Assembly (NCBI GenBank): GCA_963723515.1 | Contig: CAVRQT010000003.1 | Span: forward strand, 288,001 to 352,000 | Direction of reading: 5' to 3' | Source of the DNA: Vulcanimicrobiota bacterium | GTDB taxonomy: Bacteria; Vulcanimicrobiota; Vulcanimicrobiia; Vulcanimicrobiales; Vulcanimicrobiaceae | DNA length: 64,000 nt | Shown here: piece by piece, positions 2,770 to 53,670 of the stretch | Numbering within the stretch: the first letter of the stretch is position 1 | Layout: each line of letters starts with the position of its first letter | Made by a program: the position numbers and the translations under genes | The notes under the pieces: generated by a model | The model's input: only the letters and a program-made list of their open reading frames with translations | Told to the model about the DNA's origin: nothing | The model's database searches: none

Positions 2770-2776
2770 TTTCTAG

Positions 2777-3007
2777 TGTCACACTGAGCTTGTCGAAGTG
2801 TGACTTGGAGTAAAACGTGCGTGGACACAGCCCCTTTGTCACACTGCGCTTGTCGAAGTCCCTGTGTCACACTGAGCTTACCGAAGGTCGCGGTGTCACA
2901 CTGAGCTTGTCGAAGTGTGACTTAGAGAAAATCGGGCGAAGAGAAGGTCCCGATGTCACTGCGCTTGTCGAAGTCCCTGTGTCACACTGAGCTTGTCGAA
3001 GTGTGAC
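2777..3007 (+). repeat. Left array: six forward copies of REP-like unit TGTCACACTGAGCTTGTCGAAGTGTGAC
   Basis: Copies start at 2777, 2837, 2865, 2894, 2954, 2980. Full copies (2777, 2894, 2980) have an 8-bp stem GTCACACT/AGTGTGAC around an 11-nt loop. Confidence 0.95.
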
Positions 3008-3284
3008 TTCGGCACAATTCGCGAATCGTCGCGAAGTCGCCGTTGATCAGCGCCGTCTTCTTATCGTGGCTCCAACCTTTGAGCTTCTTTTCGCATTGGA
3101 TGGCGTCCAGCACTTCGTGAAAATCTTGCGACCATACCAGCCGCACGGGCCTGCGGCCAAAAGTGTAACAGGTTGTGAAGGTGCCGTATTCGTGCTCGCC
3201 TACGCGTTTCTCAAGCTCGCTCGTGATCCCGATGTAGTATGTGCCATCCGAGCACAGCAACATGTAGACGTAATAGATTTTCAC
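2982..3284 (-). CDS. Stand-alone GIY-YIG nuclease (YhbQ/UPF0213-like), 100 aa
   Basis: YYVYML..DGTYYIGIT..LEKRVGEH..AIQCEKKLKGWS; the Tyr, Arg, His and Glu catalytic positions appear present. Confidence 0.9.
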   Translation of the reverse strand: MKIYYVYMLLCSDGTYYIGITSELEKRVGEHEYGTFTTCYTFGRRPVRLVWSQDFHEVLDAIQCEKKLKGWSHDKKTALINGDFATIRELCRSHTSTSSV

Positions 3285-3291
3285 ATGGCGA

Positions 3292-3582
3292 CATTACCGC
3301 TCGGTCACACTTCGACAAGCTCAGTGTGACACTGGGACCCTGCTCCGATGCCCCATTACCGCTCGGTCACACTTCGACAAGCTCAGTGTGACACTGGGAC
3401 CCTCCTCCGATGCCCCATTACCGCTCGGTCACACTTCGATGCTTCGACACTTCGGCATCGCTCAGTGCAGGCTATGCTCAGCACAGGCTCGCTCAGTGTG
3501 ACACAGGGACTTCCTGTAAGGCTCGATTACCGCTCGGCCACACTTCGACAAGCTCAGCGTGACACAATAGCTCAGTGTGACA
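3292..3582 (-). repeat. Right array: reverse-orientation copies of the same unit within 62-bp tandem repeats
   Basis: GTCACACTTCGACAAGCTCAGTGTGACA at 3304 and 3366, interrupted copy 3428-3503, variant at 3537, partial at 3569; tandem units start 3292, 3354, 3416. Confidence 0.95.
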
Positions 3583-3622
3583 CGGGGCCCTTCGGTGGCG
3601 GGATTTCGAAAAAGCGGCCACC

Positions 3623-5587
<1,965 letters not shown>

Positions 5588-53414: not shown

Positions 53415-53670
53415 TGTCACGCTGCGCGTAGCCTGCCCTGAGCAGCGTCGAAGCGTCGAAGCATCGAAGCACAGCGATAATCGAGCTATTCAGTGTGCTC
53501 GTGTGTCACGCCAAGTTTGTTCGGTTCGCGATTCCTGTCACGCTGAGCTTGTCGAAGCGCCGCGATAATCGTAATTAGCGTCATTATTTCCGAGCATCTC
53601 AATCAGCACGATCACGGTGCTCGACAAGCTAGTCGACAGACAGCTCAGCGTGAGATTCGATAGCTCAGTA
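53415..53670. repeat. Second cluster of the same REP-like family, with no nuclease gene
   Basis: TGTCACGCTGAGCTTGTCGAAGCG at 53536; nested variant at 53415-53470; degenerate reverse copies about 53617-53670. Confidence 0.85.

Follow-up and report, generated by a model that had tools for sequence, protein, structure and literature searches.

A tagged 23–25-nt repeat nests one way in the loops of REP-like hairpins and has a small GIY-YIG nuclease as candidate mover

The window, by which we mean the whole 64,000-nt stretch of Vulcanimicrobiota DNA that was analysed, contains a gene for a 100-aa single-domain, UPF0213-like GIY-YIG nuclease (2982..3284, minus strand; PF01541, E 2.4e-14) with hairpin units on both sides. 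Upstream of the gene lies a cluster of hairpins of the family that we call type A (3304..3586, plus strand), which has a period of ~62 bp and includes un-nested siblings at 3304-3331, 3366-3393, and 3537-3564. A type-A cluster inverted relative to this one lies downstream (2776..3007, minus strand), with cores at 2784, 2872, 2901, and 2987, and the last codons and stop of the nuclease gene lie within the flanking type-A unit. The simple hairpin core occurs 10 times in the window, where 0.04 copies are expected (100 shuffles). Also in this region is a ClpB/C-like ATPase (3623-5587, minus strand) with a short cysteine-rich N-terminus and no apparent middle domain.

The upstream cluster also holds a double nest (3428..3503, plus strand). 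Its type-A host hairpin has arms at 3428-3439 and 3488-3503. Between them, by recursive parsing, lies a unit of a second family, type B, with stem TG/CA and tail CAGG (3440..3487, plus strand). This unit is itself split into 3440-3447 and 3472-3487 by an inner type-B unit of 24 nt with stem CA/TG, loop CATC, and tail CAGG (3448..3471, plus strand). A preliminary description of this DNA had proposed the nested structure, and on re-reading the letters we found the parse to be exact in the assembled sequence: both inserts are 24 nt long, lie directly after CTTCGA, end in CAGG, and have complementary stems of their own. They are not variants of the host repeat, as had been thought, but members of a separate 23–25-nt family (type B, CARG) distinct from the type-A host (TGAC). 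Excising each 24-nt insert does restore a core-like unit, as claimed, but the leftover loops begin with CT, which is nearly absent from un-nested units (CTA in 4 of 118 type-A loops). The nest matches its tandem sibling at 3366-3393 in upstream flank and stems but is exactly 48 nt longer; the two share 32 of 38 flank bases, and the loop is CAA in the sibling and CTC in the nested host. A second nest in the window (53415..53471, minus strand) consists of one whole type-B unit plus an extra 8-nt left half and is probably a collapsed double nest. Left-half footprints of 8 nt without a matching right half were seen there and at two loci elsewhere (L274 in genome G051 and L207 in G041); collapse of a nest between its two direct repeats would leave such footprints.

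Across the genome analysed (G000; 2.11 Mb, 4 contigs, 88% complete) we found 214 simple cores of the form CTTCGR-N3/4-GCTCAR. Type A accounts for 118 of these, ending in TGAC, and 114 have 3-nt loops. Type B accounts for 56, ending in CARG, with 4-nt loops in 34; a slightly looser pattern yields the 58 type-B units used in the counts below. The type-B form is NN-CTTCGR-N3/4-GCTCAG-NN-CARG plus 0–2 lineage-specific bases. The 2-bp stems are compensated in 95 of 118 type-A units (shuffle mean 28.1) and in 37 of 56 type-B units (shuffle mean 11.8, maximum 23 in 5000). Stem pairs that are not Watson-Crick tend to be G.T on the tag-first strand, by 13 to 2 in this genome, 47 to 4 in GTDB, and 35 to 2 in viral sequences. 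This bias comes mostly from one subfamily (CC/GA), and RNA explains it equally well; a search of Rfam gave no match for the repeat.

Nesting in this genome is one-way, keeps a fixed register, and has occurred in repeated events. Allowing up to 1 mismatch, 33 of the 58 type-B units lie directly after CTTCGA, compared with 2 of 118 type-A units. The traffic of repeats into repeats that was proposed is therefore real as insertion but runs in one direction, with type B entering A, B, or other sister hairpins. Of the 58 type-B units, 35 leave behind a core-like host when excised, and the offset is 0 in 33 of these; among random positions, 889 of 20,000 do so at any offset. Among the 30 complete nests there are 28 different forms; the outer and inner stems occur in 21 pairings and are identical in 4 nests. 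Those pairings, together with the filled and empty orthologs described below, support the original proposal of repeated, position-fixed insertion of whole units into the loops of existing ones. The genome has further double nests at C3:177018 and C3:934116, along with degenerate ones at C2:476393 and C3:64227, so the copy in the window is what two rounds of the same event should give. A type-B unit is nested in another at C2:67373, and the remainders of type-B hosts have type-B loops (GCC, GCT, GTT, AT). Remainders begin with CT in 27 of 30 nests, and a tandem pair with 37/38 flank identity differs by 25 nt, from which it follows that the unit here probably ends 1–2 bases later, at CARGCT, and takes the place of the host's C. 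Nest counts overstate the number of events because some nests have been carried along as passengers (four tandem copies at C3:373704-374264; 102 of 119 in G122).

Three genomes from the genus of the Polaromonas isolate G041 allowed filled and empty sites to be compared. This isolate has an exact 24-bp insert at CTTCGA^C, and the site is empty in G051 and in G103, whose flanks are near-identical. A second, less clean filled/empty pair is consistent with this on one flank. For most G041 nests, the loci compared (18 loci vs 32) included no ortholog. Separately, G041 has a nested dimer within a ~190-bp MITE-like insert with a 4-bp duplication (L213:1443-1628), which is absent in G051 and G103.

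Type B also enters targets other than core hairpins. Relative to G001, a genome of the same genus as that of the window, it adds 24 nt to a gene at C3:940145 and 48 nt to one at C3:142696. A gene that we take to be trmFO-like is 15 nt longer than in 21 of 21 relatives parsed (23 tried), its empty site in G001 being a 12-bp palindrome that contains CTTCGA, and a gene that is presumably hemL-like has gained 18/21 nt; these two in-frame cases are not clean and have short matches to the target. In the Nostocaceae family, 7-nt arrays house 10 of 31 sampled copies, and the array period runs on across the excised 23–24 nt. Such clean interruptions indicate that the unit is 23–24 nt long and makes no target duplication. 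Type B is a non-coding mobile micro-element with fixed ends. We rejected the tag as target sequence in the style of IS200/IS605, since the empty sites at C3:940145 and in the heptamer arrays lack the tag. A general preference for hairpin loops is weak: at 6 bp, 7 of 126 viral sites qualify against 2.0 in shuffles (maximum 7), and no such targeting was seen at 4 bp in the viral sites or among 20 non-nested sites in the Vulcanimicrobiota genome.

A repeat that precedes start codons in the Vulcanimicrobiota genome has 8 copies, of which 4 hold type B, always at the same position (filled: C2:636858, C2:631503, C3:287071, C3:760921; empty: C2:785306, 596831, 570104, 12693), and the site has no CTTCGA. 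The four inserts have four different loops, which suggests that loops can diversify after insertion. In viral contigs, type B lies inside several unrelated repeat families, including NTS-like hairpins (L396, L456, L459, L503, L400, L446, L477).

The nested junction was present in at least 126 GTDB loci, cultured isolates included, found with a search pattern that itself required the CTTCGA junction; going by the record names, we take these loci to represent ~11 phyla. The host's right arm closes 82 of 127 GTDB matches, and the hosts include type A, type B, and a third family whose tail is YGAAC. Nested matches number 20 and 13 in two cultured isolates. Junction style tracks lineage: 26 of 28 Comamonadaceae nests preserve the entire host loop after CAGGC, the C is shared in many others, and the Vulcanimicrobiota genome has an extra T. 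In 25 genomes picked for having a nest, 314 of 1052 type-B units are at the CTTCGA register, ranging from 1 of 15 to 102 of 119. In a viral sample unselected for the junction, the exact nested junction occurs in 1 of 125 copies, and offsets in core-like hosts run from 0 to +8 in the viral and Nostocaceae-family samples so drawn. Within the Nostocaceae family, type B is present in 43 of 81 genomes and a doubled left half in 16 of 81. Units with the tails GTACGA, CATCGC, and ACCAC nest at the same bond or close to it, as many as three levels deep (viral L589, L590, and L591; L548-L577), so type B is not the sole nesting family elsewhere.

Solved relatives of the window nuclease are UPF0213 proteins (PDB 1zg2 and 1ywl), and NCBIfam has no family for it. 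The same interval of G001 lacks the nuclease and contains another gene and a repeat remnant. The closest metagenome homologs (62–74% identical) are flanked by the core in its type-A form, and one has nests of its own. One metagenome contig has two near-identical nuclease cassettes 12 kb apart (L293, L294), which hints at mobility of the cassette itself. Homologs in Comamonadaceae, Bacteroidota, Chloroflexota, and the Nostocaceae family mostly have the same core flanking them, with other tails; in the Nostocaceae family this holds for 10 of 10. In that family, we found a homolog (E below 1e-14) in 9 of the 15 genomes that have 15 or more type-B copies, and in 1 of the other 66. The Fisher p of 1.8e-7 overstates this association, since the cut-off was set after seeing the data and related genomes are not independent. 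The other 6 of the 15 gave no homolog with the window nuclease as query. Among the genes examined, no nuclease was flanked by type B alone; the flanks were type A, type C, or sister families, with type B only as nests, and a search for a B-specific nuclease found none. Viral contigs had no nuclease relative, and plasmids no match to the cluster. The second small GIY-YIG gene of the genome (C3:112554) was set aside as it has no flanking repeats.

We lean, if not strongly, towards the explanation that type B is an SDR-like micro-element that parasitises REP-like hairpins, inserting at one loop bond, probably by means of a UPF0213-like GIY-YIG nuclease acting in trans. Its favoured target here is a single loop bond in hairpins that share its core, so that repeated insertion builds Russian-doll nests. 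The window copy represents two successive insertions, whose position and asymmetry can be read directly and whose order we infer. Given the G.T bias, type B is probably processed as single-stranded DNA, on the tag-first strand. Its movement probably relies on small UPF0213-like GIY-YIG nucleases that act in trans and whose genes accompany the hairpin core, with the nuclease beside the nest as the candidate mover. GIY-YIG domains hydrolyse and are not known to perform strand transfer, so the host would have to supply the ligation step. If the enzyme behaves like SsnA, its cut would fall immediately upstream of the tag in a donor copy, and the TTCGA junction would be where the stem end of the element has been joined to the loop of the target. 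In the available part of PMC11893778, the SsnA cut in single-stranded DNA lies a few bases upstream of its hairpin, varies by a base among homologs, and does not require the loop, which would make the variable tag-side junction (CARG, CARGC, or CARGCT) a better cut candidate than the TTCGA junction.

The preliminary description had instead read the insertion point as the cut site of the mobilising enzyme, which would nick the host hairpin right after TTCGA. This is not established, and we consider it unlikely. The offset of 0 in 33 of 35 hosted units here, the same junction in at least 127 GTDB matches (82 closed by the host's right arm), and its share in the nest-selected genomes all speak for such a nick, and type B placed directly before CTTCG in other repeats and genes suggests that the motif itself attracts it. 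However, the GTDB pattern demanded the junction, and offsets in core-like hosts vary by lineage: unselected samples show +1, +2, +5, +7, and +8 (11 of 31 Nostocaceae-family copies), with 0 in only 4 of 129 viral copies. Type B enters heptamer arrays, other repeats, and genes, while ~2,650 CTTCGA sites outside repeats hold at most one whole insert, though many of these sites are coding. The related nuclease SsnA, as noted, cuts upstream of its hairpin and tolerates removal of the loop (PMC11893778, available part).

Alternatively, type B could be written from a template through short core matches, by gene conversion from ssDNA or RNA or by template switching, with existing nests as donors and no dedicated nuclease. 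The +15-nt in-frame case, which replaced a target already containing CTTCGA in its palindrome, would fit this, as would the identity of the type-B tail with the host bases past the insertion point (CARGC) and the uniformity of junction style within lineages, seen in the whole host loops of Comamonadaceae. Elhai et al. are said to have put forward RNA-mediated conversion as a model for SDRs in 2008. Even so, the clean 23–24-nt insertions in heptamer arrays have no sequence in common with the element, right-hand remainders follow the host's own loop, and the nuclease co-occurs with type B, all of which make templated writing improbable. Slippage, which the preliminary description had already doubted, is rejected as a general account, and along with the copying around of one ancestral composite or an assembly artefact is very improbable: 16-bp tandem runs and 8-bp left-half footprints do exist and some composites have been copied whole, but nesting is position-fixed, 26 of 30 nests have an inner stem unlike the outer one, type A does not nest, stems are compensated far above shuffles, the Polaromonas-genus trio has filled and empty orthologs, and the matches recur in cultured isolates.

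The SDR-like reading with a nuclease in trans can be taken further, to a 24-nt cross-phyla hairpin that is a hyperparasite of REP-like repeats and is moved without a transposase by a 100-aa UPF0213-clade GIY-YIG nuclease, through cutting and ligation, with lineage-specific junctions recording the cut position of each enzyme. We offer this fuller version tentatively and regard it as possible but doubtful. The family bears on the question of how 20–30-nt repeats, SDRs and CGTC-type REPs alike, move without a transposase. Type B offers a defined substrate, with fixed ends, a likely strand, and a preferred target bond; filled and empty alleles exist in cultured strains, and the candidate enzyme of 100 aa lies outside the SRM pattern. 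The question can therefore be tested with oligonucleotides and one purified protein. Type-B units also add 5–8 residues to housekeeping proteins.

Elhai et al. reportedly described in 2008 the repeats SDR1–8 of Nostoc and its relatives, which are said to be 21–27 nt long, to make no target duplication, to lie in heptamer arrays and in frame in genes, and in some cases to be self-nested; they were reportedly described for Nostocaceae, with no enzyme. Type B resembles the SDRs, as reportedly described, in its clean 23–24-nt insertions without target duplication and in its presence in heptamer arrays, in frame in genes, and in self-nests. It may be one of the SDR families; one N. punctiforme plasmid contained no core. 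Unlike the SDRs as reportedly described, type B spans what we take to be ~11 phyla and tracks a GIY-YIG clade.

The likeness to Ssn and its NTS/SRM repeats (Chenal et al. 2025, PMC11893778) lies, as far as the available part of that paper goes, in a ~100-aa single-domain GIY-YIG gene with tagged hairpins that both flank it and are dispersed in the genome, and in the strand specificity of the hairpin. Judged from its sequence, the nuclease and hairpin cassette appears to be arranged like NTS-ssnA-NTS but fails the SRM pattern, the degenerate form of which matches 0 of 188 cores. The relatives of the window protein that have been solved are UPF0213, and in a tree without SsnA it falls outside the long-branched clade that holds an NTS-flanked protein; both points speak against its belonging to the Ssn clade (cd10448). 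Our nuclease trees omit L336 (unpublished) and L301, and one also omits L300 (long branch). The available part of PMC11893778 shows no nesting or transposition for the Ssn system.

Type A resembles the CGTC-tagged REPs (Di Nocera et al. 2013, PMC3733652, available part) in having a TGTC variant of the tag and a short tail, in forming dimers and clusters, and in having no tyrosine transposase. A CGTC/TGTC tag before a short palindrome is found in type A (118 units ending in TGAC), whereas the tag of type B is GCYTG. In the available text of PMC3733652, the word 'nested' is absent and some REPs inside other palindromes are noted. In contrast to REP/REPIN systems with a RAYT, the Y1 tyrosine transposase PF01797 was not found in the Vulcanimicrobiota genome as assembled.

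Our literature search, with subscription papers and supplements outside its scope, turned up no account of the core or of any connection between it and a UPF0213-like nuclease; the supplements of PMC3733652 and PMC11893778 may list the core. It returned nothing on nested REPs, and on Ssn only the 2025 paper itself. Self-nesting of such tiny units is probably already known; what looks new is that type B ranges across phyla, that it parasitises sister repeats in one direction, and that it has a candidate enzyme.
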